Source: Candidatus Latescibacterota bacterium (GTDB taxonomy: Bacteria > Latescibacterota > UBA2968 > UBA8231). Taken from it: a stretch of DNA of 64,000 nt. The stretch is from contig OZ242318.1 in the NCBI GenBank assembly GCA_965208105.1, positions 501,731 to 565,730 on the forward strand, read 5' to 3'. Both the position numbers and the translations under genes were made by a program. Positions 15,533 through 32,082 of the stretch are shown piece after piece (positions within the stretch are counted from its first letter, which is position 1; every line of letters starts with the position of its first letter). A model generated the notes under the pieces. It was given only the letters and a program-made list of their open reading frames with translations. It was not told where the DNA came from and did no database searches.

Positions 15533-15534
15533 AT

Positions 15535-17067
15535 ATGGCTTTCTTCTACCTTGCCATTGCCGCCGCTCTCCTGCTCTTCACTCCGCCGGCTACGGCCGCC
15601 AAGGATCTACGCACCAAGGAGCAGCGCCTTTACGATATTCAGCTACGCAACGCCCAGTGGCAGATAGACAAGGCGCGGCTCGACATGGAAATCAAGCGGA
15701 GCGATTACGATGAGATCCAGGAACTCTTCGACCAGAAGATCAGTACCCTGGAGGCACTCAACGAGGCGCGACGCCACTACCAGCAAGCCAAGCTCAAATA
15801 CGATCAGGCCGTGATCAACCTCGAGTCGAGACGCCTCTCCTTTCTCAGGGACGCCACCCACATCTCGATTGTCGAGGCCAAGAAGTACCGCACCCCTGAG
15901 GGTTACCGCCAGGTGGAGATCACCTTGGAGAATGCCTCTAACCTCAACCAGGCCGCCTCGCTCAATCCCGACAAGAGCCTGGACGAGGTGAAGGCTCTGC
16001 TCGAAATCCAGAATGTCCGGATATCCGTGCGCCAGAACAATGACCTGATCATCGGCGACCCCTACGAGATTCTCGTACCCTCCTTCAGACTAGGCGAGCG
16101 CAAAAACCTGGTCTTTCGTTTGCTCAATGACTTGGACGATGTGAATATATCTTTGATCCTGCGCGACAACCAGCGGGAAGACTTCAGGATTGTGCTGCGT
16201 AAGGAGTCTCCCCAGGATATCCCCACCATTAATTCCGTGCAGTTTTCCCAAGAGGGCAACCTCAACTCCCGGGTCCACTACGACCTCATCTTGGAGCGTC
16301 TGGCCGAAGACGAGAAGACCTTTCACTTGAACGTCATCAACCTACCGCGCGAGATCGACTTCGCCTTTCTCGACAAGGCCACCAACGCCAGCCTCACCCA
16401 GGTGAAGTTCAGCGAAGAGGTCACCCGTCAGCAACTCGAACTCGAGATCCAGATCCCCGAAAAACTCAGCCGGCACTACGTTGACCAGACTATCGAGTTC
16501 TACGTCTTTGCCACCGACCAGGAAGGCTTCCAGCAGGTCAGCCAGTTGAACCGCAAGTACGGCGTCAAACGCATGGAATTGGAGGACATCAACTCCATCA
16601 AGGGGAACAAGGAGCGCTTTGAATTGATTCCCCGGGGACAAGGCGCCCTGGAGACGATCATCGCCAACCGCTACCAGGAGATCAGGGTGGGCGAAGAGGT
16701 CACCGTGCGACTCGACCTGCTCAATACGGGGACCCTTGAGGTCGAGGCGGCGCACTTGATTTTGACCCCCCCGTTGGGGTGGAGCCGTGAGGTCGCGCCC
16801 GATACCATCGCCCGCATCATCCCCGGCGAGAAAGAGCCCGTCAATATCATTCTCTCCCCCCCAGCCGAAATAGATGTAGGCGAGTACGGCGTCCGGGTGG
16901 AGGCGGCTGGCTACGTGGGCAGCGAGAAGGTCGAGGCCGAGGAAAAGGACATCACCATCCGGGTCGAGGCGCGCGCGCGTATCGTGCGCAATGCCCTCAT
17001 CGTCGTCGCGGTAATCGCCTTGGTGGTGAGCGTGGCTGTCTGGAGCATCAAGGTCAGCCGCCGATAA
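15535..17067 (+). CDS. secreted coiled-coil + NEW3/CARDB-like protein with C-terminal TM anchor (paralog 2)
   Basis: ATG at 15535, 3 nt after the previous stop. Signal peptide MAFFYLAIAAALLLFTPPATAAKD. Same domain order as 14018..15532 (VTVRLDLLNTGTLEVEAAHLILTPPLGWSREVAP...GEYGVRVEAAG; TM tail NALIVVAVIALVVSVAVWSIKVSRR). The track ORF start at 15244 runs through the upstream gene. Confidence 0.75.
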   Translation: MAFFYLAIAAALLLFTPPATAAKDLRTKEQRLYDIQLRNAQWQIDKARLDMEIKRSDYDEIQELFDQKISTLEALNEARRHYQQAKLKYDQAVINLESRRLSFLRDATHISIVEAKKYRTPEGYRQVEITLENASNLNQAASLNPDKSLDEVKALLEIQNVRISVRQNNDLIIGDPYEILVPSFRLGERKNLVFRLLNDLDDVNISLILRDNQREDFRIVLRKESPQDIPTINSVQFSQEGNLNSRVHYDLILERLAEDEKTFHLNVINLPREIDFAFLDKATNASLTQVKFSEEVTRQQLELEIQIPEKLSRHYVDQTIEFYVFATDQEGFQQVSQLNRKYGVKRMELEDINSIKGNKERFELIPRGQGALETIIANRYQEIRVGEEVTVRLDLLNTGTLEVEAAHLILTPPLGWSREVAPDTIARIIPGEKEPVNIILSPPAEIDVGEYGVRVEAAGYVGSEKVEAEEKDITIRVEARARIVRNALIVVAVIALVVSVAVWSIKVSRR

Positions 17068-17289: not shown

Positions 17290-18012
17290 ATGCTTGAAAT
17301 CATCTCCATGTCCAAGCACTACGGCGAGGTGCAGGCGGTCGACGAGCTCAACCTCACCATCCGCCCCGGTGAAATCTTTACTATGCTGGGGGCAAATGGC
17401 GCCGGCAAGACCACTACTCTTATGGTATCCCTTGGCTTTACCGAGCCGACGGCAGGCACGGTGAAGATCTGCGGCGTCGACGTGACCAGGGATCCCTTGG
17501 AGGCCAAAAAACACGTGGCTTACGTGTCAGAAAACGTCATGCTCTACGGCAATTTCACCGCCCGTCAAAACCTGGATTTCTTCGCCAAGTTAGGGGGGCG
17601 CAAGGACGCCACCGACGAAGAGTACGAGCGCATCATGGAGCGGGTGGGTCTGCAGGCGGACGCCTTCAACCGGAGGGTAAAAGGCTTTTCCAAAGGCATG
17701 CGCCAGAAGCTGGGCATCGCCATTGCGATCGTCAAAAACGCCGAGGTCATTTTGCTGGACGAGCCCACTTCAGGGCTGGATCCCCAGTCAGGGACCGAGT
17801 TTTTGCAGCTTTTGACCGAACTCAGGCACGAAGATAAAACCATCTGGATGACCACGCACGATGTCTTCCGCGCCAAGGCCATCGCCGACCGGGTGGGGAT
17901 CATGGTGAAGGGCAAGCTGGTAAAGACCTTTACGCGCGAGGAGTTGGAACGCGAGGATCTGGAGAAGATCTACGTGGAGTATGTCAGCCAGGAGGTGGGA
18001 CAGGCCGCCTGA
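17290..18012 (+). CDS. ABC-2-type transporter ATP-binding protein (no intact cognate permease adjacent)
   Basis: Walker A GANGAGKTT, signature FSKGMRQKLGIA, Walker B ILLDEPTSGLD. 240 aa, single NBD. Confidence 0.9.
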   Translation: MLEIISMSKHYGEVQAVDELNLTIRPGEIFTMLGANGAGKTTTLMVSLGFTEPTAGTVKICGVDVTRDPLEAKKHVAYVSENVMLYGNFTARQNLDFFAKLGGRKDATDEEYERIMERVGLQADAFNRRVKGFSKGMRQKLGIAIAIVKNAEVILLDEPTSGLDPQSGTEFLQLLTELRHEDKTIWMTTHDVFRAKAIADRVGIMVKGKLVKTFTREELEREDLEKIYVEYVSQEVGQAA

Positions 18013-18196: not shown

Positions 18197-18628
18197 ATGA
18201 ATACGCAGGTGTTATTAGTAGAGGACCACGAGGCCGTGCGCCAGGAGCTGCGCTTGTTGCTTGAGCAACAAAGCGGAATTGAGGTAGTCGCCGAGGCCGG
18301 CGACGGCCGCACGGCCGTCGCCTTGGCCTCCACCTGTCTACCCGACATTGCGGTCATGGACGTTGGCCTGCCCCACCTGAATGGCATTGAGGCGACGCGA
18401 CAGATACGCGTCAAGGCGCCGGGCGTGAACGTGGTGGCGCTGTCGGTGCACGCGGACCGGCGTCTTGTAGACGGCATGTTTCAAGCAGGGGCTTCGGCGT
18501 ATGTGTTGAAAACGGCGGCTACCCGCGAGTTGGTGGAAGCGATCCGGCAGGTACAGGCCGGCCGCAAGTTCGTAAGTCCCGAATTGATCGCCCTCTTCGG
18601 CGAGGACTATGGCGCGTCTTCCTTCTGA
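18197..18628 (+). CDS. REC-only response regulator (LuxR-type paralog lacking the HTH domain; possibly a truncated gene)
   Basis: 143 aa. MNTQVLLVEDHEAVRQELRLLLEQQSGIEVVAEAGDGRTAVALAS...DIAVMDVGLPHLNGIEATRQIR is colinear with the RR at 11819..12466 up to ...SPELIALFGEDY, then diverges and stops. GGAGGGG RBS 7 nt upstream. Confidence 0.7.
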   Translation: MNTQVLLVEDHEAVRQELRLLLEQQSGIEVVAEAGDGRTAVALASTCLPDIAVMDVGLPHLNGIEATRQIRVKAPGVNVVALSVHADRRLVDGMFQAGASAYVLKTAATRELVEAIRQVQAGRKFVSPELIALFGEDYGASSF

Positions 18629-18859: not shown

Positions 18860-20854
18860 ATGAAAAACATGAACATTAATAATGTATGCCTCTTCCTCGT
18901 GGGTATAATAGTATGGCCAACCTGTGGGACGGCAAGTTGGCACCTGAAGGCGTCCGGATATGAAGTTTCCAAGGTAAGGTATTCGATTTTCGGCGAAGGG
19001 TTGAAACAACACCGAGGATACTACTTTCCCGAATACCTGCCCGCAGACCGCGCGTTACATGTCGGATTCAAGCCCATCCGCTTCCAGAAATTTTCCGCCC
19101 TGGCCGAAGCTCTCGGCGCGAAAAGCGAAAAAATCCACGCTTGGAAAACCGAATTTGAGTCTCCTGTCAGGTGCTTGGACCAGATCACCTTCTTGTATCG
19201 CCGCATATATGCCAGGAACGTCAGTGAATACACAATTTATCTCCAATCCCCTCAGACTGAACAGTGGTACAGAAAAAGGATAATAATCCCTTTTAAGGGG
19301 TACCAGATCCCTTCATACGACGCGATTTCGCAATGGGAACCGTTGGTAGACGACGGCTCCGAAGAGGTATCCCAGTTTTTGAGCGAGGTTAACCATTTCG
19401 ATAAAATTGGCCAATTGGCGATCGTGGTTACTCCCTCGGATACGGACTTCGATTTTGTCATCGGAGACTTGCAAATAGTGGACCGGGAAATCGGCTATGC
19501 CGATTTCCATCATCCTTTTTTCGACCCGATTTTGAGCGAGGATTCCGCCCAGTACATCGAAAGAGATTCCTTTTACAATGCCTCAGGTATTCCCGCCCTG
19601 CTCCTTCCCATCAGTTGTTATGCCATGCACAGGAATTACGGGTCGGTTTTCCATTTCGACCCAGGGAATCGGGAAGTGGATGCCGGAGACATCAGGGACC
19701 TGAAAGTCAACGTTATCAAGCGAATTTTAGAGCTGTACTCATTCTATGAAGAACGCGGATTGGATAGGAAAAGCGCCCTGAACAGGTTTGCCTTCATCGA
19801 GAATTACGGGCTGGACAGAGAAGCTTTCGAGGACAGCGTCCGCGCTTTATTGGCAGATTTTCATGATGCCCATCTATCCGTAGCAAACAACGCCCATCTA
19901 TCCATAGCAAACAAGAAGAACAGATGCGCTTTCAATCATCCATTGGCGCTGTACAATATCGGCGGCAAAGTCTACGTGGCGGCGGTGTTCGACTCCCTAC
20001 TCGCGGACGATATAGAAGTGGGTATGAAGGTGCTCAAATTTGATGGAGTACCTGTGATTGAAGCGATAGACAGGGAAAGCGAGCATTACCGGGGCAGCAG
20101 CAAAATAAGAAGAAGGAAAGCGACGAGAAACCTGCTCGCATGCAGGCGAGACGAAAGGGCAACATTGAAACTTGCATCTGTTGATGGGGCAGTTAAAGAC
20201 GTCCTGATTGAAGACAGGAAAGTGCGGATTCCGTCGAATCTCGTGCCGCGACACGGAGAATTCAGGGTAGAAAGTGGGATAGTGTATTTTCGTATCCGCC
20301 AATGGACCTATGACGTGTGGATCCGGTTTTTGAACCATGCGGATGAACTCGAAAGCGCGAAGGGCCTGATCATCGATTTGAGGTCCAACGGTGGAGGTGA
20401 CGGCGGCACGGTGCTAAGGATGGTATCGGCGTTCATAGACGAGAACGCGCTATGTGGGAGCGAGTACTGTCCCGCCGACGGCAGAATCGAGAGCATGGTG
20501 ATAAGACCCAACGACAAATTCCATTTCGATCTGCCCGTCGTCATCCTGGCCAATGAGGCGACTGCCTGCGCAAGCGAGAACTTCATCGATATAATGAGAT
20601 CTACCAATCGGGCCATCATGGTGGCGGATAGTCACACACAGGGCCTTTTTTCGTCCAGGATCGACTTGATATTCCCGGACGGGATGAGGATTCATACCAA
20701 TAGCTTATCCAAACCGTTGAGACCCGATGGTTCTTCATACGAGGTAAAGGGGCTCGAGCCAGACATCTGGGTACACTTGAACACAATTGATGATCTGGCA
20801 CATCGGGAAGACAAGATACTGCGAACCGCAAATCATCTGCTGGAAGCGCAGTAG
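18860..20854 (+). CDS. S41-family (C-terminal processing / tail-specific type) peptidase with PDZ-like domain, N-terminal signal/anchor
   Basis: 664 aa. N-terminal hydrophobic segment VCLFLVGIIVWPTCG. PDZ-like GGKVYVAAVFDSLLADDIEVGMKVLKFDGVPV. S41 motifs GLIIDLRSNGGGDG and VVILANEATACASENF (Ser motif). The usual G-K-G lysine motif is not evident (DSHTQGLFSS). Lower-GC codon usage. Confidence 0.7.
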   Translation: MKNMNINNVCLFLVGIIVWPTCGTASWHLKASGYEVSKVRYSIFGEGLKQHRGYYFPEYLPADRALHVGFKPIRFQKFSALAEALGAKSEKIHAWKTEFESPVRCLDQITFLYRRIYARNVSEYTIYLQSPQTEQWYRKRIIIPFKGYQIPSYDAISQWEPLVDDGSEEVSQFLSEVNHFDKIGQLAIVVTPSDTDFDFVIGDLQIVDREIGYADFHHPFFDPILSEDSAQYIERDSFYNASGIPALLLPISCYAMHRNYGSVFHFDPGNREVDAGDIRDLKVNVIKRILELYSFYEERGLDRKSALNRFAFIENYGLDREAFEDSVRALLADFHDAHLSVANNAHLSIANKKNRCAFNHPLALYNIGGKVYVAAVFDSLLADDIEVGMKVLKFDGVPVIEAIDRESEHYRGSSKIRRRKATRNLLACRRDERATLKLASVDGAVKDVLIEDRKVRIPSNLVPRHGEFRVESGIVYFRIRQWTYDVWIRFLNHADELESAKGLIIDLRSNGGGDGGTVLRMVSAFIDENALCGSEYCPADGRIESMVIRPNDKFHFDLPVVILANEATACASENFIDIMRSTNRAIMVADSHTQGLFSSRIDLIFPDGMRIHTNSLSKPLRPDGSSYEVKGLEPDIWVHLNTIDDLAHREDKILRTANHLLEAQ

Positions 20855-20903
20855 AATCCATAGGCTTTGGAAGGCGACAAACTGTAAGAAAGGAGAACAT
20901 GCC

Positions 20904-21062
20904 ATGAAAGAGCTCATTAAGCCCAACTTGACTGAGGAAGAGTGCGAGAATAACGAGGTCGCGGCATATTGCGACCTTTATTCCTGCGCGCCCGTGAGTT
21001 GCAACCTTTGGTCGTGTCAACCCGTTTCGGGTGATGACGAGTCCGGGGACATTCTGTTCTAA
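20904..21062 (+). CDS. Cys-rich precursor-peptide candidate (52 aa) with four C-X3-S pentads
   Basis: AAGGAG (20889-20894) lies 9 nt before ATG 20904. MKELIKPNLTEEECENNEVAAYCDLYSCAPVSCNLWSCQPVSGDDESGDILF. It sits immediately upstream of a radical SAM/SPASM gene. The 91-aa track ORF from 20787 overlaps the end of the upstream gene and is less likely. Confidence 0.75.
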   Translation: MKELIKPNLTEEECENNEVAAYCDLYSCAPVSCNLWSCQPVSGDDESGDILF

Positions 21063-21248
21063 TTGCCAATTGTTCAGCGGAGGCCATAACAGCGAAGGAC
21101 CATTCGCCTGGAACACGTCTCTTGACCGTTTGACCCCATAACTACTTTTCGATCAGTTTGTCGCCTTCCACGTCTTTCAGAAGCCGTCTTAGACCCTCGG
21201 TGAGGATCACTAGGAACTTTAAGGAGGCTTCTTAAAAAGGAAAATGAG

Positions 21249-22730
21249 ATGTTTAAGTTGAGCTATTATACCTTCATCATCCCCGTAACCGAGAAGGGGA
21301 TGTACCTCGCCTATAATTCATTTACCAATGCATTGCTGGAATTGGAGTGGCATGAAGGCAAGAAGATGCTGGAGTGGAAAAAGAAGGATGCCATTCCCTC
21401 TTCGGAACTCGACAGCGAAGAAAAGCGCTTTGTAAACGCTTTGCTCAACAATCACTTTCTGGTAGACGAGGGGGTTGATGAGAAAGAGCGCTTGCATCGC
21501 CGCATTTCTACCCAGAAAGAAAGGTTCTGGAGAGAACCAGCGACCATGGCGCTCACCATATTGCCGACTATCTCGTGCAATATGGGTTGTTCCTATTGTT
21601 TTGAGGGATACAAGCCGTTCGGCAAGGTTATGAACAATGAGGTCATGGACGATATAGCCGAATTCGTGGTAAGAGAAATCAAGCAAAGCACTGTCGTCAG
21701 TTCCTTCAAAAAAATGTTCATCCAGTGGTACGGGGGGGAGCCCCTGCTGCAACCACATGTCGTCGATAGACTTTCGGAAAAATTGTACCGAATCGCCGAC
21801 GACAACCAAATCCCCTATACTTCGATGATCATTACGAACGGAACCTATCTAACGCCCGCTATATGGGATCTGTTAAAGGAAGCGAGAATTGACCGGATAC
21901 AAGTGACCATTGATGGCCACAAGGACTCCCACAACAGGCAACGCCCCCTCACCTTGCCGATCATCGGCCAGGAAATAGAGGCGGGTAGCTATGACACCAT
22001 ACTGGAAAACCTGAAGTATTTTCCGGACAAGATGGCTCTTAATATCCGGATAAATTCGGATAAGAATATAATCAATTCCCTGGGCGACCTCCTGGACGAC
22101 CTGGAGGAAATTGGCCTGTGGCCTCAGCAGGCTAGCCATGTGAGCCTGACCCTCGCCCATAAGGAAACTCCTTATGAAGAGTCGGGAGTAGTAGACATCG
22201 AGTCTCAGTACTTGAGCCTCAAGCAGCAAACCAAGGCGCAGAAGATATTCCAGGACATGAAGCTCAATCACTACAACAATTGGGCCTCCAAAAATAACAG
22301 GGTTTTGGCCAGGAAGCGTCTGGCCTACCCTGAACCGGCAACTTTTGTATGTGGGACTGCCTCGCTGCCTTACAGTTTTTCCATAAGTTACGACGGGCAT
22401 ATTCACCAGTGCATGGAGCAAGTCAACGATCCTAAAGCTAAGTCACATTACATTGGCGATACCTACAATATCCACGATCCCCTGCGGAAAATTTTCCTGA
22501 ACTGGGATAAATTCCTTCACCATCCAATGTGCACTGATTGCAGGGTACTGCCCATATGCGACATGGTTTGTCCTCACAAGGACCCGCCCGAAGCGTGCTG
22601 TGATTGGAAGGTAGACCTCAAATCGCGGTTGAAGGAGCAGTATATCGCGTCCATTGATACGCCCCACCTAATTGAGTCTTTCGACGCAGTAGAACAACAG
22701 CGGCAGAAAGATTTCACCCTCGTGATATAG
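21249..22730 (+). CDS. radical SAM / SPASM-domain peptide maturase
   Basis: CNMGCSYC (CxxxCxxC, 21576-21599). GGEPLL motif. SPASM 7-Cys pattern CGTASLPYSFSISYDGHIHQC ... CTDCRVLPICDMVC (C-x2-C-x5-C-x3-C). About 100-aa N-terminal extension that could be a leader-recognition (RRE-like) domain. Confidence 0.9.
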   Translation: MFKLSYYTFIIPVTEKGMYLAYNSFTNALLELEWHEGKKMLEWKKKDAIPSSELDSEEKRFVNALLNNHFLVDEGVDEKERLHRRISTQKERFWREPATMALTILPTISCNMGCSYCFEGYKPFGKVMNNEVMDDIAEFVVREIKQSTVVSSFKKMFIQWYGGEPLLQPHVVDRLSEKLYRIADDNQIPYTSMIITNGTYLTPAIWDLLKEARIDRIQVTIDGHKDSHNRQRPLTLPIIGQEIEAGSYDTILENLKYFPDKMALNIRINSDKNIINSLGDLLDDLEEIGLWPQQASHVSLTLAHKETPYEESGVVDIESQYLSLKQQTKAQKIFQDMKLNHYNNWASKNNRVLARKRLAYPEPATFVCGTASLPYSFSISYDGHIHQCMEQVNDPKAKSHYIGDTYNIHDPLRKIFLNWDKFLHHPMCTDCRVLPICDMVCPHKDPPEACCDWKVDLKSRLKEQYIASIDTPHLIESFDAVEQQRQKDFTLVI

Positions 22731-22744
22731 GGCCCCTAATACCC

Positions 22745-24640
22745 ATGCGAATAGCAATCATAGACAGCGGAATAGATGCGGGACACAAGCGTCTCAAGAA
22801 TTGCGTGTGCAGCGGCGTTTCGCTGCGGTGCGGCGAAGAAAAACCCACCCTTAGCTACGAATACGGCGACTGCCTGGGCCACGGGACCGCCTGTGCGAGC
22901 CTCGTGCACAAGGTGGACCCGCAGGCGGAAATAGTGGCGGTGAAGATATTTCACCGCGAGCTATCCGCCAAAGAGGAGCTACTTTGTGAAGGTATCAGAT
23001 GGTGTTTGGGCAACGACATCGACGTCATCAACCTGTCCCTCGGAATCCTGACGGATAGCCCCTCGCAAGCGCTGATCGGCCTGCTCGAAGAGGCCTTTGT
23101 GAAAAACGTCGTCGTCGTCTCGGCGGCGCACAACGACTTGAGGCTGGAATGCTACCCGGCGCATTTCCACACCGTGTTCGGCGTGACCTGGGGAAAGGTG
23201 GACCATCACTGCTTGTATGGTTATCTGCCCGACTCGGCCATCGAATTCATCGCCAAGGGGACGATACAGCGGGTCGCATGGAAAGACGGGGGCTATTCCC
23301 TATTGAGCGGAACGAGTATGGCCTGTGCCCATTTCACCGGCATCACCGCGGGCGTACTAAGGCAGAGCCCCTCTATGTCGGTCGGGGAACTCAGGAGCCA
23401 CCTTATCGGGAAGGCGGACGCGAATATTCGGGCGCTGCAACCTGGCAGCAAAATTCAGGGAGCCTTCCCGAGGATCATCAGCGGCGATCTGGACGAGGCG
23501 GGACGGAGGCTGTTCCGCTGGGAGGAAAAGATGGATTGGCTGGGGGACCTGGCCCTTTTTCCCGCCAGCGAAAAGGAGATGAGCGGCTTTGTCGAATTTC
23601 CCGGCTATTGTACGCAAAAGATAGCGAAGTACATTGACTACCCAAGAAACATGAAGAGGCAGGCCCCAAACGGCAGCGGCAAAAGCGATGCTATCAAAAC
23701 ATACGACAAGATGCTGGACGCGGCGGCTTGCGAAGACTTCGACACGATGGTTCTGGGATATTTTTTTGATCAACTCTTTGAGGCGAATATCCGCTTCGGC
23801 AACGACTTGCTGGCCGTGTGCATGGAGGCCCAAAAGAACCTCTACGTGTACGACCCCAGGTTGAAAGCTCATATCGATAGCCTGAACGGAAGTGCCAAGC
23901 CTTTGTTTCGGCTGTATATGCCGGAGGTCAATGGCCGGTTGCACGACCGTGTCATGCAGTTTCGCCATCTGCCCAGGGTACGGGTGCCCGTCATGGCAGT
24001 GATGGGCACGAGCAACCGCCAGGGGAAGTTCACCGCGCAACTCCGGCTCAAAGACATCCTCAACAGAGAGGAATACAAAGTCTGCCACCTATCCACTGAG
24101 CCCCAGGGTGAGTTGTTCGGGGCGGATTTCAGTTTTCCCTATGGCTATAACGGGACAGTTTCCATCCACCGCAAAAAGTGGTCGATGTTCCTCCGCACCC
24201 TGCTCAAAGCCGTCCAGGAATACAACAGACCCCATATCATCCTGACCGGGACACAAGGCATGACGATTCCCCGGGCACCCAACCAAGCCCCGCTGGGAAA
24301 TGAATGCGACAGCCTGGAATTCATGTACGGTGTCCATCCTGATGCTTTAGTTTGCGCCATAAATCCCCAGGATTCCATCGAACTGGTCGTCGACGCGTGC
24401 CAGGCGGCCCGGATATTCTGCGGGGCGGAACCCTTGTTTTTCATCATGACTCCCTGGATGAGAGACTACACGCGCGCCGGCAACGGCCGCATGGTACGCC
24501 ATCACCGATACCTGCATAAGGAAGAGATGGCGGAGAAAATGAACCATTTCCAGGAGGTATTGCACAAGCCGGTCATCGATATCATGGATTTGAACAATGA
24601 CAAGCTAATCTTGGACGCCATCCAGGATTTCTTTTCGTGA
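22745..24640 (+). CDS. S8 subtilisin-like serine peptidase fused to a ~400-aa C-terminal P-loop (DUF1611-like?) domain
   Basis: Catalytic triad contexts IAIIDSGIDAGH (Asp), CLGHGTACASLV (His), LLSGTSMACAHF (Ser), all within the first ~230 aa and with no signal peptide. The C-terminal part contains VMAVMGTSNRQGKFT (G-x5-GK-type loop). Confidence 0.75.
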   Translation: MRIAIIDSGIDAGHKRLKNCVCSGVSLRCGEEKPTLSYEYGDCLGHGTACASLVHKVDPQAEIVAVKIFHRELSAKEELLCEGIRWCLGNDIDVINLSLGILTDSPSQALIGLLEEAFVKNVVVVSAAHNDLRLECYPAHFHTVFGVTWGKVDHHCLYGYLPDSAIEFIAKGTIQRVAWKDGGYSLLSGTSMACAHFTGITAGVLRQSPSMSVGELRSHLIGKADANIRALQPGSKIQGAFPRIISGDLDEAGRRLFRWEEKMDWLGDLALFPASEKEMSGFVEFPGYCTQKIAKYIDYPRNMKRQAPNGSGKSDAIKTYDKMLDAAACEDFDTMVLGYFFDQLFEANIRFGNDLLAVCMEAQKNLYVYDPRLKAHIDSLNGSAKPLFRLYMPEVNGRLHDRVMQFRHLPRVRVPVMAVMGTSNRQGKFTAQLRLKDILNREEYKVCHLSTEPQGELFGADFSFPYGYNGTVSIHRKKWSMFLRTLLKAVQEYNRPHIILTGTQGMTIPRAPNQAPLGNECDSLEFMYGVHPDALVCAINPQDSIELVVDACQAARIFCGAEPLFFIMTPWMRDYTRAGNGRMVRHHRYLHKEEMAEKMNHFQEVLHKPVIDIMDLNNDKLILDAIQDFFS

Positions 24641-24954
24641 ACGGGCGTGAGGACGGCACCATGAGAGAAGCTATCGAGCAGCGATTGTACGAACTGATAG
24701 GGACGTTTGGAGACCAACCGATCAACTGCTCTGTTGAGAGCGAAGTGCGAAGGATGCTCCATATCATCTTGAGCGAGTCCATACAAGCGATGGAATTCGT
24801 CATCGCCATTGAGAACGAATTCGAGATCGAGTTCGACGACGAAGACATCTCCATCCAATTCTTCCTCGACCCGGATCATATCATCCAATCCGTGCTGAGA
24901 GGTCTGGCGCGGAAGGAGGCGGATGGCCTAACATCATCAAGTGCTGTCACCTGA
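24637..24954 (+). CDS. acyl-carrier-protein-like small protein
   Basis: LHIILSESIQAMEFVIAIENEFEIEFDDEDI aligns with the ACP helix II region (DSL replaced by ESI, Ser retained). GTG 24637 overlaps the upstream stop (GTGA). Alternative ATG at 24661. Confidence 0.6.
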   Translation: MNGREDGTMREAIEQRLYELIGTFGDQPINCSVESEVRRMLHIILSESIQAMEFVIAIENEFEIEFDDEDISIQFFLDPDHIIQSVLRGLARKEADGLTSSSAVT

Positions 24955-24965
24955 GGAGGTCTGCC

Positions 24966-26366
24966 ATGTTCAAGACCATTCTGTTCAAGGAAATCAAGGG
25001 CCAATTAGGCACGGTGACATTCGCCGTCTGGATGGGCGTCTCGTGCTTTCTGGTCTGGATGGCCCTGGAGAGCGGTTATTCGAGATACGAGCACAAGCAT
25101 CAGCAATACCTCGATATGGACAGGGTGGTCAAAGACGGCCTCAGCAAAGAATACGACGTCAACAAGGCGGAAGAGGAGCTCTTCCGGGTTTTGCGGCAGC
25201 CGTCGGTGTTGAGCGCAGTTGTCTACGGGCTGGAAGGCAAGATGCCGATCTATATGAGTGTCAATCCCAACGGCGTACGCTCCGGTTCGGGGTCAGGCAC
25301 GGAAGAATCCGTATTGAGCCTGTTCGGGGAGCTGGATTTTCTCCTGGTCATCGAGCTGATTCTCGGGCTGATGGCCGTGGTGCAGGCGGCCAGTCTGGTG
25401 TCTTCGGAGAGGGAAAACGGCACTCTGAAGCTGATATTGGCCAACCCGGTTTCCCGCAGCACCGTCTTGCTGGGCAAGTGTATGGGCGGATACGCTGTCG
25501 TCGCCTTCGTCTTTGTGTTTTCCTCCTTTATCGGGTTTTTGCTTCTCTCGATCAGGGGGTTTCCACTTTTCGAGTCGGACGTGCTCGCGCCGATACTCCT
25601 GATCTTGGCCGGGAGCCTGGTCTATTTGCTGTGCATCTTTCTGGTGGGGATGGTCGGTTCTATCCTGTTCCTGAACACTCAAACGGCCTTGATATTGAGC
25701 GTGTCGATCTGGGCCGCGCTGTCTTTTCTCGTTCCCAAAAGCGCCCGGATCGCGGCCGAGTTGATCCGCCCGGTAGAGGACGAGCGGACGGTTTACTTGC
25801 GTCAGAAGCACGCCCGTGAAGACCTGATCAGGGCCCAGCATGAGGAAATGAGCGAGAATTACCGCCAGGAGTTGACTCCAGAATGGCTGATGGCCAACTT
25901 CGCGACCTTGGCAGAGGAAGGCGCGGCAGTTTGGAAGAAATACAGCGACCGGATCTCCAAAGACCTGACCACCATCGCCGAGGACCACCACCGGGAGAAG
26001 AAAGCGCAGGAATCTCTGGGTAAGGTGCTGTCCCGGGTATCCCCCGCGGGCAGTTTCCGGCTGCTCTTGGCGAATTTGTCCGGTACGGGCGACCAGGTGA
26101 AGTGGGAATTACTGCAAGTGGCCTGGAACTACCAGAAAACGGTCAATGACAAGGTCTTCGCCAAAAAACCCTTGATCGCTGTCCAGAATATGAGTTTCCC
26201 CCATGATATGGGTACAGAGGATCCGCCGCCCCCACCTCTGGTCATGGCGCCGCCCCTCGGCAGTGTCTTGACCGAATCCGCGCTAGACACAGCCTTATTA
26301 TGCGTCTATGCCGTCATGTTGTTCATGCTGGCCTATATGCTGTTCCTGCGGCGCTCTATCGTGTAA
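24966..26366 (+). CDS. ABC-2-family permease-like membrane protein with long C-terminal extension, paralog 1
   Basis: MFKTILFKEIKGQLGTVTFAVWMGV. Conserved SSERENGTLKLILANPVSRSTVLLGK. Multiple TM helices. Pro-rich stretch and terminal TM helix near the C-terminus. Confidence 0.8.
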   Translation: MFKTILFKEIKGQLGTVTFAVWMGVSCFLVWMALESGYSRYEHKHQQYLDMDRVVKDGLSKEYDVNKAEEELFRVLRQPSVLSAVVYGLEGKMPIYMSVNPNGVRSGSGSGTEESVLSLFGELDFLLVIELILGLMAVVQAASLVSSERENGTLKLILANPVSRSTVLLGKCMGGYAVVAFVFVFSSFIGFLLLSIRGFPLFESDVLAPILLILAGSLVYLLCIFLVGMVGSILFLNTQTALILSVSIWAALSFLVPKSARIAAELIRPVEDERTVYLRQKHAREDLIRAQHEEMSENYRQELTPEWLMANFATLAEEGAAVWKKYSDRISKDLTTIAEDHHREKKAQESLGKVLSRVSPAGSFRLLLANLSGTGDQVKWELLQVAWNYQKTVNDKVFAKKPLIAVQNMSFPHDMGTEDPPPPPLVMAPPLGSVLTESALDTALLCVYAVMLFMLAYMLFLRRSIV

Positions 26367-26382
26367 TAGAGGAGTCATCCCC

Positions 26383-27786
26383 ATGTTCAAGACTATTCTG
26401 TTCAAGGAAATCAAGGGCCATTTAGGCACGGTGACATTCGCCGTCTGGATGGGCGTCTCGTGCCTGGTGGTATGGATGGCTCTGGAGAGCGGCTATTCGA
26501 GATACGAGCACAAGCATCAGCAATACCTCGATCAGGAACGAGAGGCGAAAAAAAGCCTCAGTAAAGAATACTTTGCGTTCTGGCCGGAAGAGGAAATATT
26601 CCGGGTGCTGCGCCAGCCGTCGGTGTTGAGCACCATCGTCTATGGGCTTGAAGGTGAGCTGCCGGTTTATCTGAGCGTCAACCCCAACGGCGTCCGGTCC
26701 GGTTCGAAGGGGATGGGTGGAGCTATGTCGCGCCTGTTGGGAGAGCTGGATTTTCTCCTGGTCATCGAGATGGTGTTCGGGCTGATGGCCGTCGTGCTGG
26801 CGGCCACTCTGGTGTCGTCGGAGGGAGAAAACGGGACGCTCAAGCTGATATTGGCCAACCCGGTCTCCCGCAGCACGGTCTTGTTGGGGAAGGGGCTGGG
26901 CGCCTTCGCCATCATCGCCTTTGTCTTTGTGTTTTCCACTTTTATCGGGCTTTTGTTCCTGTCGGTGAAGGGGTTTCCCCTCCTCGAACGGGAGGTGCTC
27001 GCGTCACTGCTCGTGATTGTGGCGGGAAGTCTGGTTTATTTGCTGTGCGTTTTCCTGGTGGGGATGATCTGCTCCATCCTGTTTTTGAACACCCGGGTGG
27101 CCTTGGTGCTGAGCGTCTTGCTGTGGGCGGTGCTGTCTTTTCTGCTGCCCAAAAGCGCCGGGACTGCGGCGGAGTTGATGCGCCCGGCAGAAGACGGTTG
27201 GACCGTTTACTTGCGTCAGAAATCCGCCCGTGAAGCCCATCTCAAGGCCCACCACGAGGAAGTGAACAAGCATTACCCCCATCTGGGTCCAGCCCCGGAC
27301 TCGAGGGATCTGGACTACCCAGGGATTACGGAGACTGCCGTAGCGGCTTGGGGGAAGTACAGCGACCGGATCGCCAAAGAAGTGACCACCATCGCCGAGG
27401 ATCACAATCGCAACAAGCAAGCCCAGGAAGCCCTGGGGAAGGTGCTGTCCCGGCTATCCCCCGCAAGCAGTCTCCGCCTGCTGTTGGCCAATGTGGCCGG
27501 CACGGGCGACCAGGTGAAGCGCAACTTCCTGCAAGCGGCCTGGAACTATCAGAATACGGTTGACGACAAAGTCTTCTCAAAAAGAATCCATATCACTATC
27601 AGGAAGAATCAGGGTTGGCCCTGGGACATGGGTGCAGAGCGACCGCCGCCCCTGCCCCCGCTCCTGCCGCCGTCTCTCGAGAGTGTCTTGGTGGAGTCGG
27701 CGTTAGAAATCGCTTTATTGTTCGTCTATTCCGTCTTCCTGTTCATGCTGGCCTATATGCTTTTCATTCGTCGATCCATCGCGTAG
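26383..27786 (+). CDS. ABC-2-family permease-like membrane protein, paralog 2
   Basis: ATG 26383 after GAGGAG. The first ~150 nt are nearly identical to paralog 1. SSEGENGTLKLILANPVSRSTVLLGK. Confidence 0.8.
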   Translation: MFKTILFKEIKGHLGTVTFAVWMGVSCLVVWMALESGYSRYEHKHQQYLDQEREAKKSLSKEYFAFWPEEEIFRVLRQPSVLSTIVYGLEGELPVYLSVNPNGVRSGSKGMGGAMSRLLGELDFLLVIEMVFGLMAVVLAATLVSSEGENGTLKLILANPVSRSTVLLGKGLGAFAIIAFVFVFSTFIGLLFLSVKGFPLLEREVLASLLVIVAGSLVYLLCVFLVGMICSILFLNTRVALVLSVLLWAVLSFLLPKSAGTAAELMRPAEDGWTVYLRQKSAREAHLKAHHEEVNKHYPHLGPAPDSRDLDYPGITETAVAAWGKYSDRIAKEVTTIAEDHNRNKQAQEALGKVLSRLSPASSLRLLLANVAGTGDQVKRNFLQAAWNYQNTVDDKVFSKRIHITIRKNQGWPWDMGAERPPPLPPLLPPSLESVLVESALEIALLFVYSVFLFMLAYMLFIRRSIA

Positions 27787-27801: not shown

Positions 27802-29229
27802 ATGTTCAAGACCATTATGTTCACGGAAATCAGGAGTCGCTTGGGCACGGTAACTTTCTCCCTGTGGCTGGGCGTCTCGTGCTTGGTGGTATGGATGGCT
27901 CTCGAGAGCGGCTACTCGAGATACGAGCACAAGCATCAGCAGTACCTCGATCTGAAACGGGCGGCCCAAGATGGCCTCAGCAAAGCATACATGCCGGTCG
28001 TAGCGGAAGAGGACATATTCCGGGTTCTGCGTGAGCTCTCCGTGTTGAGTGCCATCGTCTACGGGCTGGAAGGCGAGATGCCGGTCTATATGAGCGTCAA
28101 TCCCAACGGCGTACAGCCCGGGGCGGGGATAGCGGATAAATCCTTGTTGGACCTGTTGGGAGAGTTGGATTTTCTCCTGGTCATCGAGCTGATTCTCGGG
28201 TTGATGGCCGTGGTGCAGGCAGCCACTCTGGTGTCGTCGGAAGAGGGAAACGGGACGCTCAAACTGATGTTGGCCAACCCGGTCTCTCGCAGCACCGTCC
28301 TGTTGGGGAAGGGGCTGGGCGCCTTCGCCGTCATCGCCTTCACCCTTTTGTTTTCCACCCTTTTCGGACTTTTTTTGCTCTCGGTCCGGGGATTTCCGCT
28401 CTTCGAGGCAGCGGTGCTCGCGCCGATACTCTTGATCTTGACGGGGAGCCTGGTCTATCTGCTCGTCATCTTTCTGATCGGGCTGACCTGCTCTATTCTG
28501 TTTCTGAATTCCCAGGTAGCTTTGATCCTGAGTGTCTCGCTCTGGGCTGCGCTGTCTTTTCTCGTGCCCCAAAGCGCCTGGACTACGGCGGAGTTGATCC
28601 GCCCGGCAGAGAACGAGCGGACGGTTTATGTGCGGCAGAAATACGCCCGCGAAGCCCATCTCAATGCCTACCACGAGGAATTGAACAAGCGTTACCCCCA
28701 CCTGCAACCTGACGCAGAGGGCAATGCGGACTGGTCGGGGGTCAACCAGACCGAGTTGACGAAGGACGCGGTGGCGGTTTGGGCGAAATACAGCGACCGG
28801 ATCGCCAAAGAAGTGACCACCATCGCCGAGAACTACCACCGGAACAAGCAAGCGCAGGAAGCCCTCGGTAGGGTGCTGTCCCGGGTCTCCCCCACCGGCA
28901 GTTTCCGCCTACTCTTGGCCAACCTGGCCGGTACGGGCAACCAGGTGAGGTGGAAATTCTTGCAAGCGGCCTGGGACTACCAGAATATGGCAAACGATAA
29001 AGTCTTCTCAAAAGATCCCATGATCACTATCGGACCCTCGAGTTGGTGGCCCAGTATTATGCGGGGTGCAGATAACCCTCCTCCCCCACCTCCCCCACCA
29101 CCGGTCATGGTTCCGTCCCTCGGCAGCGTCTTGACAGAGTCGGCCTTGGACATGGCCATGCTGTTCATTTACGCCGTCGTGCTCTTCATGTTGGCGTATT
29201 CGCTGTTCATGCGTCGGTCCATTGTATAG
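27802..29229 (+). CDS. ABC-2-family permease-like membrane protein, paralog 3
   Basis: MFKTIMFTEIRSRLGTVTFSLWLGV. SSEEGNGTLKLMLANPVSRSTVLLGK. PPPPPPPPP tract before the last TM helix. Confidence 0.8.
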   Translation: MFKTIMFTEIRSRLGTVTFSLWLGVSCLVVWMALESGYSRYEHKHQQYLDLKRAAQDGLSKAYMPVVAEEDIFRVLRELSVLSAIVYGLEGEMPVYMSVNPNGVQPGAGIADKSLLDLLGELDFLLVIELILGLMAVVQAATLVSSEEGNGTLKLMLANPVSRSTVLLGKGLGAFAVIAFTLLFSTLFGLFLLSVRGFPLFEAAVLAPILLILTGSLVYLLVIFLIGLTCSILFLNSQVALILSVSLWAALSFLVPQSAWTTAELIRPAENERTVYVRQKYAREAHLNAYHEELNKRYPHLQPDAEGNADWSGVNQTELTKDAVAVWAKYSDRIAKEVTTIAENYHRNKQAQEALGRVLSRVSPTGSFRLLLANLAGTGNQVRWKFLQAAWDYQNMANDKVFSKDPMITIGPSSWWPSIMRGADNPPPPPPPPPVMVPSLGSVLTESALDMAMLFIYAVVLFMLAYSLFMRRSIV

Positions 29230-29266
29230 TCCGCCGCTCCCATTGCATGAGGATGAGTTGAGAGTT

Positions 29267-31015
29267 ATGAAACGCGTTCCTGACTCGGAACCTGGGATGA
29301 TCAGAGCTACACTGAAGAGAATCGGATTATACCGCGCAATTATGGCCAACGGACTGAATATATTGCTTCTGTGTATTATCGCCGCGGCAGTGGTAACGTT
29401 GACCATAGCCAAGCCCATCGTGTTTTCCAGGATAATTGACAAGGGAATCCTCAGTGAGGACTGGAGCGTGGTCCGCTCGCACTGCGTCTACTTCCTCATT
29501 ATTGCATTGGGCTTGAGTCTTTTCGGGTTAGCTCACTCTTTAGTCGCGTCGGTAATACACAACAAAATATCCTTGATAATCAAACAGGTTCTCCTGGAAC
29601 GGATCTTTCTCCTGGACGCCGGATTCTTCCACACGAACAAGACCGGAGACGTCATTACCAAGCTGGACAACGACGTATCGAGCATCCAGACCTACATCAT
29701 GTCGGTCCTGAACGCCTCCATGAACAATTTTATCAGCTTTCTAGGGGCGATGATCTATATCGGCTACGTGCAATGGAGGATGTTGATCGTCGGGTTCCTG
29801 GTGACCCCGTTTGTGGGTCTGGCCATTTACGCGTTCCGCAACGTGTTATACTCCAAGGACAAGAAGACCCGGGAGCGGAAGTCCGACGTAAATGACGCGA
29901 TAATAAACGCCGTCGACCATCAGCTTTACCTGAGGAAGGTCGGATTGGACTCGAGATCGCTGTCGAAGTGCAAATGGACCTTGGACCAGTACCGGGTCGC
30001 ATCCATCTTTTACGACCTATGGCGCGGCGGCAGCGGGTCGCTAAACAACCTCCTCCTTGCCGTCGGCTATATTGTTACCATCGGCTACGGTTCGTGGCTG
30101 GTCTTCAAAGGCATGCTCAGCGTCGGCAATCTTTTCGCATTTCTAACCCTGCGCACCATGTTCCTTGCCCCGCTGACGGTCTTCAAGGAAATCTACAGTG
30201 GGTACTTTTCGACTAAATCCGCATTCAAGCGCCTGGACGATTTCTTCTGCCATCGGATCGAGAAGGGTCTGGAACGCATGGACAACTCGAAACCCGAATC
30301 GTTTGGAGAGATCTGTTTGAGCAACGTATCGTTTGCCTATCCAGGGCAACACTGTCTGTTGAACCACATTGACGTTGAATTCGGCAGGGGCTGGAATATC
30401 CTGGCGGGTAGAAACGGTGCGGGGAAATCGTCATTGATCGACCTGCTCATGAAGATTTCGTCTCCAAGGGAGGGGCGCATCTTGGTCGACGGCGTAGATA
30501 TTGGCTCGCTCAACAATCAGTCATGGAGGTCCAACATCAGTGCCATGCCTCAAACCACGTACTTGTTCAAAGGGTCGTTGCGGGAGAACATTCGCCTGTA
30601 TGACGAGGGCATAACCGACGGTCGAATTCAGGCCGTGCTGAACCGCCTGAGCTTCGATTTCGATCCCGAAAAGCTACCAGCAGGGCTCGATACGAACATT
30701 ATGGAGGGAGGGACCAATTTTTCTGGGGGCCAGCGCCAAAAAATCGCGATCGCCAGGACCGCCCTCAAAGACACCCCTATCTACATCTTCGATGAACCCC
30801 TGTCCAGTCTGGATATGCGTTCGCGCGGCCTGGCCTTGGAGTACTTAAAAAAGGCGCTCAAAGGCAAGATCGTCCTAATCGTTTCACACGATGACATGGG
30901 CGAATATACGGATCGGGAGTACAGAATGAAAGACGGGGCCATCGTGACCACCGCCGCAAACGGGTTGGATCGTGTTCCAGAGGAGGGTTCCAATACTTTG
31001 CATATATCAGTCTGA
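29267..31015 (+). CDS. ABC exporter, fused transmembrane + ATP-binding domains (type I exporter, no C39 peptidase domain)
   Basis: ATG 29267. N-terminal 6-TM-type domain. Walker A GRNGAGKSS, signature FSGGQRQKIAIART, Walker B IYIFDEPLSSLD. Confidence 0.85.
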   Translation: MKRVPDSEPGMIRATLKRIGLYRAIMANGLNILLLCIIAAAVVTLTIAKPIVFSRIIDKGILSEDWSVVRSHCVYFLIIALGLSLFGLAHSLVASVIHNKISLIIKQVLLERIFLLDAGFFHTNKTGDVITKLDNDVSSIQTYIMSVLNASMNNFISFLGAMIYIGYVQWRMLIVGFLVTPFVGLAIYAFRNVLYSKDKKTRERKSDVNDAIINAVDHQLYLRKVGLDSRSLSKCKWTLDQYRVASIFYDLWRGGSGSLNNLLLAVGYIVTIGYGSWLVFKGMLSVGNLFAFLTLRTMFLAPLTVFKEIYSGYFSTKSAFKRLDDFFCHRIEKGLERMDNSKPESFGEICLSNVSFAYPGQHCLLNHIDVEFGRGWNILAGRNGAGKSSLIDLLMKISSPREGRILVDGVDIGSLNNQSWRSNISAMPQTTYLFKGSLRENIRLYDEGITDGRIQAVLNRLSFDFDPEKLPAGLDTNIMEGGTNFSGGQRQKIAIARTALKDTPIYIFDEPLSSLDMRSRGLALEYLKKALKGKIVLIVSHDDMGEYTDREYRMKDGAIVTTAANGLDRVPEEGSNTLHISV

Positions 31016-31023
31016 TATTCAGA

Positions 31024-32082
31024 ATGAGCTACCAGATGTCGACTAAAGAGTTATACTTACCGCTCAATCCCAATCCTCCGATTAGAGTCTATCTGCATCA
31101 TGCCTACCCTCTGTCAATTTTATCAAGTACCGAAGAGTATTTGCCCTGGTTCCGAAGCAACTTTGTTCAACTGTATAGCGGGGGTCCCGATCATATCGAT
31201 TTCCTCGTACCCATGCTTACACACGCAGACCATCCTCAGATCTACTATTCTCCTCTTCTGAACGTGGTTCGGCTCAATAGAAAAATCGTCGATTTGATAA
31301 ATGCCGATTCTGAAATCTGGAGATTCATTGTCGACTGTATAACAGAGGGCTTCTACGTCGATATCGAGGTTGATGAATATCACGTTCCTTTTACTCGCGC
31401 ATTCCATAATTTTCATACTGGACATTCTCTTCTGATTCATGGCTACAATACTGCTCAGGAAAAATTCAGTGCCATCGGTTACGATCGAAACGGCAAATAC
31501 GGCATCCAGCTTGTCGATTTTGCCAGCACACTCAAAGCTTACGGTAGCCGGGAAAGTAAAAATCACATGGCAATAGTGTCTCATGCTTTAAGACAGAAAA
31601 CGGGCCGCGATAGCAACATCCAGTGCGAATTCACGCTCGAGTTGGTGGTTGACATGCTCAAGGACTACATCCACTCAATCAACACGCTTGACCGGTTGAA
31701 GTTGGTTTTGAGATCGAACTATAGATCGAATTCCCTGCGTTTTGGAATTGAGGCCGTCAGAAAATTGCGATTTGAACCTAGTGCGGCGAATGCGCCTTTG
31801 GATCTGCGTCCTTCTCACTGTCTCTGGGAGCATAAGAAATGTATGGCCGAGAGGGTTCAGTACCTGGTAGAAAACGGATATTTGGACAAGGTTGGAAATT
31901 TGGTATTTGAGTTCGGAAAAATTGCTAAAATGGCGGAATCACTCAGGCTGCTGGCAATCAAGTACAACTTGCAGAAACAACGAAAAATACTCCATAAAAT
32001 GGACAACCTGAGAAACAAAATAGTTGAGGGTGAGAAATTCCTCATAAAAAATTTACTGGACCGACTACCGTCATGCCCATGA
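31024..32082 (+). CDS. hypothetical protein (orphan, last gene of the lower-GC operon)
   Basis: 352-aa ORF, AT-rich codon usage like its neighbours, 8 nt after the exporter stop. No motif I can assign with confidence. Confidence 0.6.
   Translation: MSYQMSTKELYLPLNPNPPIRVYLHHAYPLSILSSTEEYLPWFRSNFVQLYSGGPDHIDFLVPMLTHADHPQIYYSPLLNVVRLNRKIVDLINADSEIWRFIVDCITEGFYVDIEVDEYHVPFTRAFHNFHTGHSLLIHGYNTAQEKFSAIGYDRNGKYGIQLVDFASTLKAYGSRESKNHMAIVSHALRQKTGRDSNIQCEFTLELVVDMLKDYIHSINTLDRLKLVLRSNYRSNSLRFGIEAVRKLRFEPSAANAPLDLRPSHCLWEHKKCMAERVQYLVENGYLDKVGNLVFEFGKIAKMAESLRLLAIKYNLQKQRKILHKMDNLRNKIVEGEKFLIKNLLDRLPSCP

Follow-up and report, generated by a model that had tools for sequence, protein, structure and literature searches.

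The locus described here raises the question of what is made from a very short gene whose cysteine codons recur with complete regularity next to the gene of a peptide-modifying enzyme. In a Candidatus Latescibacterota bacterium (assembly GCA_965208105.1, contig OZ242318.1, positions 501,731 to 565,730 of the forward strand; this stretch of 64,000 nucleotides is referred to as the window), an open reading frame (ORF) at 20904-21062 encodes a peptide of 52 residues with four consecutive pentads, each beginning with Cys and ending with Ser, and is followed by the gene of a radical S-adenosylmethionine (rSAM)/SPASM enzyme. The original prediction took the ORF for the precursor of a ribosomally made, post-translationally modified peptide (RiPP) of an undescribed class, in which the C-X3-S periodicity would reflect the chemistry. 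The ORF is, with high confidence, a RiPP precursor of the FlmA / 'DD(I/V)LF' family, an assignment that rests on sequence comparison; the explanation taken as a whole, in which such a precursor would receive a ladder of Cys thioethers and be trimmed by two peptidases, is considered rather likely. The parts on which the argument depends are the following:

20890..20895, + strand: Shine-Dalgarno (SD) sequence AAGGAG, 8 nt from the ATG, unchanged in four related loci
20904..21062, + strand: precursor peptide gene, 52 aa, recognised by its translation, an NCBIfam match and conservation in relatives
20904..20969, + strand: leader, codons 1-22, with the K-E-L-I-K-P motif
20970-21029, + strand: core, codons 23-42, with four Cys at five-residue steps and two C-x-L-(Y/W)-x-C-x-P-V-x decapeptides
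21030-21059, + strand: follower, codons 43-52, GDDESGDILF
21249..22730, + strand: radical SAM/SPASM peptide maturase, 493 aa, nearest family FlmE/OhkG, from hidden Markov model (HMM) searches, alignment and an AlphaFold2 (AF2) model

The first step is whether the ORF is a gene at all. On the forward strand, 20904-21062 reads MKELIKPNLTEEECENNEVAAY-CDLYS-CAPVS-CNLWS-CQPVS-GDDESGDILF*, and the precursor architecture originally proposed, with a leader, a Cys-rich core at 20970-21029 and an acidic follower with a hydrophobic end, was borne out both by this translation and by the relatives described below. The AAGGAG upstream of the ATG and the spacer of 186 nt between the precursor stop (which ends at 21062) and the rSAM ATG at 21249 were likewise confirmed, with 8 nt between SD and ATG. 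A further in-frame ATG at 20898, 6 nt 5' of 20904, has only 2-3 nt between itself and the SD, which makes 20904 the more probable start. The ORF is short, has no Pfam match and lies between the arms of a conserved long-range inverted repeat (RNA or DNA), all of which would suit a chance frame or an untranslated piece of an intergenic regulatory region. Such an origin is nonetheless extremely unlikely, since the ORF and its strong SD are kept in more than 15 syntenic loci, changes in the leader are mostly synonymous, the NCBIfam match is significant, and homologous precursors have already been expressed and found to serve as enzyme substrates. When the window is compared with its closest homologous locus (L168), the leader differs by 4 synonymous and 2 non-synonymous codons and the core by 2 synonymous and 9 non-synonymous codons, with Cys, Leu and Pro unchanged, while the DNA of the follower and of the stretch 5' of the SD is near-invariant among related loci. 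At the level of these codon comparisons, a hypervariable core flanked by a conserved leader and follower is the classic signature of a RiPP precursor and indicates that the ORF is under coding selection.

The second step is the family to which the peptide belongs. Precursors of the 'DD(I/V)LF' type were defined as an orphan RiPP family in Chembiochem 2025, in a study whose characterisation is limited to the peptide arginases FlmR and OhkR and which describes as unknown the mature products, the limits of the core and what the C-terminal motif does (PMC12703449). Two clusters were described, flm from Flagellimonas meridianipacifica (FlmA1-3) and ohk from Ohtaekwangia koreensis (OhkA1-2) (PMC12703449). 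The flm genes comprise flmA1-3, flmE (rSAM/SPASM, 486 aa), flmR (arginase), flmF (S41 peptidase, 653 aa), flmH (S8 peptidase, 638 aa), flmJ (acyl carrier protein (ACP)-like), flmK (holo-ACP synthase) and an ATP-binding cassette (ABC) transporter (PMC12703449 supplement). The FlmA-type assignment of the window peptide is made because of its K-E-L-I-K-P leader motif, its acidic ILF tail and conserved synteny. In the leader, the K-E-L-(I/V)-K-P motif of the family appears as MKELIKP, which corresponds to the reading ...PKELIKPE...EFMCRENDHATTCRVNYGMNEENDILF of FlmA1 (PMC12703449 supplement); the peptide terminates in ...GDDESGDILF, that is, in the acidic stretch and D-(I/V)-L-F end typical of the family; and the S41 and S8 peptidase genes are both present in the window cluster. 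The sole NCBIfam match of the peptide is NF052472, 'FlmA family RiPP peptide', at 28.3 bits (E 1.5e-6), which lies below the curated cutoff of 30 bits. For scale, FlmA1 scores 72, OhkA1 17.7 and another member of the clade, P0081, 31.1 bits with this model, which at E up to 5 was the only peptide-family match for these peptides. Similarly, the best match of the rSAM enzyme is NF052473, 'FlmE/OhkG family radical SAM/SPASM peptide maturase', where its 378 bits fall short of the curated cutoff of 500 bits, yet exceed the score of any other family by ~180 bits. Given these two matches and the published 'DD(I/V)LF' orphan family (PMC12703449), the class can no longer be called undescribed; the accompanying claim that its chemistry is unsolved holds for the products of the family.

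While the window shares with flm and ohk the K-E-L-(I/V)-K-P leader, the acidic follower with an ILF end, a last Cys 14 residues from the C-terminus and a gene set of rSAM/SPASM (~490 aa), S41 (~655 aa), S8 fusion (~635 aa) and ACP-like proteins, it differs from them in several ways. It lacks the arginase, the core Arg, the 2-oxoglutarate (2OG) or cupin oxygenases and the holo-ACP synthase; its core has four periodic Cys in a duplicated decapeptide, as opposed to two Cys 9-10 residues apart; it comes from another phylum, its closest named relative being a Gemmatimonadetes metagenome-assembled genome (MAG); and the curated HMM cutoffs are missed narrowly by the peptide and widely by the enzyme. 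A core Arg together with an arginase marks the published subset, and the window peptide contains no Arg; no motif of a peptide arginase (PF12640) was found in the six frames of the window, and no Pfam match to it among the neighbouring genes. On the sequences compared, the locus is best filed as a non-Bacteroidota sister clade of the FlmA/FlmE family without a peptide arginase. Literature searches for FlmE, OhkG or 'every fifth' returned nothing apart from PMC12703449.

The loci used for comparison were drawn from GTDB genomes and assemblies, with the genome scan carried out by an rSAM alignment. A genome scan with a single rSAM sequence (back-translated patterns) gave no relatives, whereas the alignment-based scan did find them; a metagenome scan with alignment A2, whose patterns were too generic, gave only relatives of at most 31% identity, with a FlmA-type peptide just in L084. 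Close homologues of the peptide are rare, with just two among 5.8 billion proteins, and a profile search of 1.84 billion cluster representatives gave about ten FlmA-type peptides. The rSAM homologues form a gradient, with five at 79-84% identity, one at 53%, eight at 39-45% and Bacteroidota FlmE-like enzymes at ~30-35%; the closest named organism is the Gemmatimonadetes MAG (L006, enzyme identity 45%). The genome of the window itself is absent from the GTDB representatives. In almost all fetched loci the gene order is S41, small ORF, rSAM and S8 fusion, and in a tblastn census S41 and the S8 fusion occur together in nearly every locus with a FlmA-type peptide, the exceptions being L004 and L005 (no detectable S41) and L009 (no S8). 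In loci with an rSAM of at most ~30% identity and no FlmA-type peptide, S41 and S8 were absent, save for an S8 in L018 and an S41 in L020. This census bears out the genetic link, proposed at the outset, between the precursor and the rSAM/SPASM gene at 21249-22730. The two peptidase genes of the window are:

18860..20854, + strand: S41 (C-terminal-processing type) peptidase, 664 aa, signal-peptide-like N-terminus, FlmF counterpart
22745..24640, + strand: S8 subtilase (QhpE-like, residues 2-227) with a DUF1611/TIGR04066-like C-terminal domain, 631 aa, FlmH counterpart

The third step concerns the periodic core. Four Cys exactly five residues apart were found in six distinct precursors, that of the window included, whose enzymes, where paired, are 45-100% identical. 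These ladder cores are:

Window: CDLYS CAPVS CNLWS CQPVS
P0005: CDLWV CQPFA CLLWA CQPII
P0006: CDLWC CEPVG CFLWA CFPIL
P0078/L081: CDLGP CLPVT CSLYV CLPVS
P0083/L001/L083: CDLGP CLPLQ CTLGA CNPLS
P0086: CDLWL CQPVW CDLWE CNIAE

In these six, the Cys are invariant and Asp directly follows the first Cys throughout; the +2 position alternates Leu/Pro/Leu/Pro with one Ile exception; odd pentads have an aromatic residue or Gly at +3, and even ones an aliphatic residue; and the +4 position, which is Ser in the window, is unconstrained. The pentad-final residues of the ladder homologues read V/A/A/I, C/G/A/L, P/T/V/S, P/Q/A/S and L/W/E/E, so that the C-x3-S regularity is confined to the window sequence and the ladder relatives keep only the Cys and the +2 Leu/Pro. 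Thus, the pentad periodicity expected in homologues was found for the Cys spacing, which is kept in the six precursors, but not for the Ser. Judged from this alignment, the true unit spans ten residues, C-x-L-(W/Y/G)-x-C-x-P-(V/I/L/F)-x, and occurs twice. At the DNA level, nothing is invariant beyond the codon positions for Cys, Leu and Pro and a single hydrophobic second-codon position, and Tandem Repeats Finder detected no DNA-level repeat in the core. The pattern, as far as the codons indicate, is maintained by selection at the protein level. A recent duplication of 30-nt units was considered and rejected, the two units being only ~60% identical and giving no Tandem Repeats Finder repeat.

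A requirement for periodicity, as had also been supposed, did not hold up. In L164, whose enzyme is 83% identical to that of the window, the core is CDNI-CNVFI-CGANT, with three Cys at spacings of 4 and 5, and the Cys periodicity is therefore not obligatory. The remaining clade members have 2-5 Cys at spacings of 4 to 7, and Bacteroidota members typically 2-4 Cys; the core residues conserved throughout the family, Bacteroidota included, are limited to the 2-5 Cys and an acidic residue following the first of them. In non-ladder members (L006, L082, L165 and Bacteroidota), Cys is usually accompanied by Asn or Asp at +3 or +4 (CxxN, CRxN, CGxSN). This CxxN-type motif, not found in the ladder sub-clade, could mark a Cys-to-Asn/Asp acceptor.

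Distances to the ends of the peptide vary less than the core itself. The comparison covered 43 FlmA-type precursors (window, fetched loci and PMC12703449). Of these, 35 from several phyla, FlmA1-3 among them, have their last Cys 14-15 residues away from the C-terminus, the distance being exactly 14 in 15 of 17 non-Bacteroidota members; the first Cys lies 15-17 residues past the leader Pro in 29 of 42. This tail distance is near-constant despite core lengths of 5 to 24 residues. It suggests that the 14-15-residue tail is a distance-setting anchor for the rSAM enzyme or for a protease, and the hydrophobic C-terminus (ILF, VLF, LLI or ILV) may be a fixed-length anchor of this kind.

The fourth step is the enzyme and what it can be expected to do. 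Its radical SAM motif, C110-x3-C114-x2-C117, is invariant in 26 homologues, as are the SPASM residues C368, G383, C388, C428, C431, C437 and C441, with C450 kept in at least 90%. After FlmE/OhkG, the enzyme scores 196 bits with TIGR04463, 187 with Clo7bot, 142 (141.9) with CefB and 109 (108.8) with PapB, the geopeptide model matching too, and all of these next-best families are maturases for Cys-rich peptides. Its AF2 model has a predicted local distance difference test score (pLDDT) of 90.4, and a Foldseek comparison of this model with the PDB gave as its best match the thioether-forming CteB (5WHY/5WGG, E ~1e-15), in a top group of CteB, TigE, anSME and SuiB with E from 1e-15 to 1e-13 over ~480 alignment columns. 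The N-terminal domain, from secondary structure alone, is inferred to be a RiPP recognition element.

In the mechanism proposed here, the leader motif would bind the N-terminal domain of the rSAM enzyme, which would then join each core Cys to a nearby carbon by an intramolecular thioether and so build a ladder of small rings. The acceptor would be a residue other than the pentad-final Ser, with both C-alpha and side chain, and an offset of +2, +3 or another, being possible. The cytoplasmic QhpE-like S8 domain would cut off the leader, the product would be exported by ABC transporters, and the signal-peptide-bearing S41 peptidase would recognise the free ...ILF-COOH and trim the acidic follower. 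Thioether formation is proposed because all well-scoring relatives of the enzyme are maturases for Cys-rich peptides, and because the characterised PapB, CteB and QhpD are thioether-forming enzymes; by this analogy, Cys-centred thioether chemistry on the core, its regiochemistry left unspecified, is slightly favoured. As for the acceptor, Ser, on the evidence of the alignment, is ruled out as a conserved one, and the variable positions fit either C-alpha links (sactionine-type and indifferent to the side chain) or links to the conserved +2/+3 residues. Leader removal in the cytoplasm is assigned to the S8 domain because this domain has no prodomain and no signal peptide and matches the QhpE leader-peptidase model at 125 bits; the catalytic domain of the S41 peptidase aligns with Ctp/Tsp C-terminal-processing proteases. 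The assignment of S8 to the leader and S41 to the follower, made by analogy with such enzymes, stands at about even chances.

A more specific and rather doubtful version would combine four rings, with Cys S linked to unactivated Leu, Pro or aliphatic carbons at a fixed offset, with the ILF tail as a 14-residue ruler and with control of precursor dosage by a conserved long-range RNA stem, which would excise the cistron or make it more stable. We know of no description of Cys-S links to unactivated carbons of non-acidic residues among rSAM thioether synthases, and this regiochemistry would thus be new.

Several findings weigh against the explanation favoured here. The scores of both peptide and enzyme fall short of the curated cutoffs given above. 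Unlike freyrasin, the ladder sub-clade shows no acidic, Asn, Ser or Thr acceptor conserved at a fixed offset. Among PDB sequences, the enzyme is best matched by TigE (8VPO), which synthesises cyclopropylglycine and works on repeated motifs; SPASM enzymes on repeats therefore need not form thioethers. The AF2 model of the S41 peptidase, made from a 5-sequence alignment, has a pLDDT of 34.7, and a PDZ-type domain binding the C-terminus is thus unsupported. The sole experimental study on the family concerns the arginase, and no reaction of the FlmE/OhkG family has been demonstrated (PMC12703449). In that study, FlmR was still active and OhkR merely weakened when the tail was replaced by Ala, a result that is silent on the rSAM enzyme and the proteases (PMC12703449).

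Two other readings of the core have to be weighed against a thioether ladder with an unspecified acceptor. The one originally put forward, a ranthipeptide of the freyrasin kind with every C-X3-S pentad closed by a Cys S-to-Ser thioether onto its final residue, draws on the four perfect pentads of the window peptide, which were reproduced in 0 of 200,000 peptide shuffles (at least four equally spaced Cys of any period from 2 to 10 occurred in 1161 of 200,000, ~0.6%, which makes such spacing improbable as a chance outcome), and on the distant relationship of the rSAM enzyme to PapB (108.8 bits). It is nevertheless very unlikely, since the ladder homologues have V, A, I, C, G, L, P, T, Q, W or E in place of Ser at +4, since the PapB model score is far under its cutoff of 340, and since PapB-type chemistry takes carboxylate-bearing acceptors. 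The broader analogy with freyrasin and PapB fared better, as it gives a reasonable picture of how such a system might work, although the PapB score and the acidic acceptors expected of it were not found here.

According to the other reading, the enzyme would carry out non-thioether rSAM chemistry on the conserved hydrophobic residues, such as TigE/TvgB-like cyclopropylglycine formation, epimerisation or a Trp/Tyr C-C cyclophane, and the Cys would serve disulfides, an auxiliary cluster or a metal. TigE, being the best PDB sequence match, a top fold match and a repeat-acting enzyme, speaks for this, as does the retention of Leu/Pro at +2 and of an aliphatic or aromatic residue at +3 in the ladder clade. 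Across the family, however, it is only the 2-5 Cys and the acidic residue behind the first that are universal, the W/Y at +3 becomes Gly in L081, L001 and L083, and the nearest HMM families all act on Cys-rich peptides, so that this reading is considered improbable, if less so than the Ser-acceptor one, and a Cys thioether ladder remains the preferred reading.

Comparison with characterised systems places the locus further. Freyrasin, the product of PapB, is a ranthipeptide with repeated C-X3-D motifs; like it, the window peptide has strictly periodic Cys in a short core and an rSAM/SPASM maturase, and a ladder of small rings is a plausible topology. In contrast to it, the +4 position has no conserved Asp/Glu (Ser in the window, variable in homologues), the maturase scores 108.8 bits with NF047865 against a cutoff of 340, and the window has a conserved follower, another leader and two dedicated peptidases. 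The SCIFF/CteB system (thermocellin) provides the best structural match, a Cys-rich precursor and a SPASM enzyme known to form thioethers; the similarity is one of fold only, as the TIGR03974 score is 51 bits against a cutoff of 425 and the window precursor lacks the SCIFF signature. In the Qhp system, QhpE, a subtilisin-like protease of the cytoplasm, cuts off the leader once rSAM thioether formation has taken place. The S8 domain of the window resembles QhpE of this QhpC/QhpD/QhpE set (quinohemoprotein amine dehydrogenase), whereas the QhpE model gives 125 bits against a cutoff of 165 and the QhpD model 47 against 453, and the product is a small peptide as opposed to an enzyme subunit. CefA/CefB, to judge by the family name, is an already catalogued precursor class with a Cys at every fifth residue, and the window enzyme reaches 142 bits with its maturase model, although these 141.9 bits of NF038107 compare with a cutoff of 600; no literature on a CefA/CefB 'Cys-every-fifth' system was found. 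The TigE/TvgB systems share with the window an rSAM/SPASM enzyme and a tandemly repeated short motif, as well as the sequence match to TigE described above. Their repeats, however, have Val and no Cys and undergo C-C bond chemistry, TigE installing C-C bonds in Val within repeated motifs (PMC10878394), while the window conserves Cys.

A further feature of the locus is an inverted repeat that brackets the precursor gene:

20868..20891, + strand: 5' arm, with a perfect 17-nt core at 20868-20884, TGGAAGGCGACAAACTG
21147..21170, + strand: 3' arm, inside the 186-nt spacer, with a perfect core at 21154-21170, CAGTTTGTCGCCTTCCA

The arms are separated by 255 nt in the window. Bracketing repeats of 12-24 nt, with arms 221-279 nt apart and sequences that differ by lineage, were found in all 12 non-Bacteroidota loci inspected (the window, L168, L169, L164, L081, L083, L001, L082, L006, L165, L166 and L167). 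Complementarity is kept through a compensatory change of C:G to T:A between the window and L164, and likewise between L082 and L165. Significance was assessed by the longest exact complement, as RNA duplexfold with shuffles allowed huge interior loops and was uninformative; by this measure the flanks beat all 500 shuffles in 10 of 15 loci, and mismatched-locus controls gave a longest complement of 6.8 nt on average and 12 nt at most. When 20860-21180 is folded as RNA, the stem is present in both the minimum free energy and the centroid structure (z = -4.6). Rfam scans gave no family over the peptide region or the repeat. The repeat is probably a long-range RNA stem that insulates, stabilises or excises the precursor cistron, for which the processing stems around rRNAs provide an analogy; a role at the level of DNA, as an inverton or as paired operator sites, would be the alternative. 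The 5' arm abuts the SD, and the stem may partly cover it. An origin as a miniature inverted-repeat transposable element or another repeated element was also considered and rejected, the arm sequence occurring at only two sites in the 64-kb window.

The FlmA/FlmE family has been catalogued, yet has no known product structure or rSAM reaction, and the clade described here offers a simpler entry point, as it has only one precursor, lacks the arginase and the oxygenases, and carries four regularly placed core Cys, where every ring formed is expected to show as a clean step of -2 Da. Comparison indicates that constraint falls on the Cys, on Leu/Pro at +2 and on the Asp behind the first Cys, and it suggests a handle of fixed length in the tail. 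The enzyme's tolerance of different Cys spacings would be useful for engineering. If the bracketing repeat acts as RNA, it would be a compact means of uncoupling the expression of precursor and enzyme within one operon.

The remaining genes of the cluster and its border are as follows:

17290..18012, + strand: ABC transporter ATPase 5' of the cluster, cluster membership uncertain
24637..24954, + strand: ACP-like protein, 105 aa, helix-II Ser kept (…LSESIQAMEF…), FlmJ counterpart
24966-26366, 26308-27786 and 27802-29229, + strand: three ABC-2-type permease genes, probably for export or immunity
29222..31015, + strand: ABC exporter with fused transmembrane and nucleotide-binding domains (TMD-NBD), downstream in related loci too
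31024..32082, + strand: BtrH_N-like protein, 352 aa; BtrH_N/DUF4872 recur at the ends of related clusters

Related clusters again contain the ACP-like protein, the DUF1611/TIGR04066-like domain and the BtrH_N-like protein, and flm has a holo-ACP synthase as well. These parts hint at a so far unrecognised acyl-transfer step on the peptide. Upstream, 12678-17067 carries the genes of an outer-membrane efflux protein resembling TolC and of two proteins with a NEW3 (NPCBM_assoc) domain, and the ABC ATPase follows them; the TolC-like and NEW3 proteins and the three ABC-2 permeases may jointly serve to export the peptide or to protect the cell from it.

Directly 5' of the S41 gene, the response regulator at 18197-18628 consists of a receiver domain only, whereas the orthologous loci L083 and L165 have a receiver plus a GerE helix-turn-helix (HTH). 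No GerE HTH was found 3' of the window receiver domain in any frame, and the regulator may be truncated. An intact pair of a PAS-HisKA_3 kinase and a LuxR-type regulator is found at 10677-12466. Farther upstream, a group II intron at 7121-8909 (Rfam RF02003 D1-D4 at 7121-7256, 117.6 bits; reverse transcriptase (RT)/maturase ORF at 7548-8909) adjoins a DDE transposase at 9082-10311 on the - strand, and transposases also flank L081, L166 and L167. With this intron and the transposases at the window, L081, L166 and L167, the cluster therefore lies in DNA rich in mobile elements.

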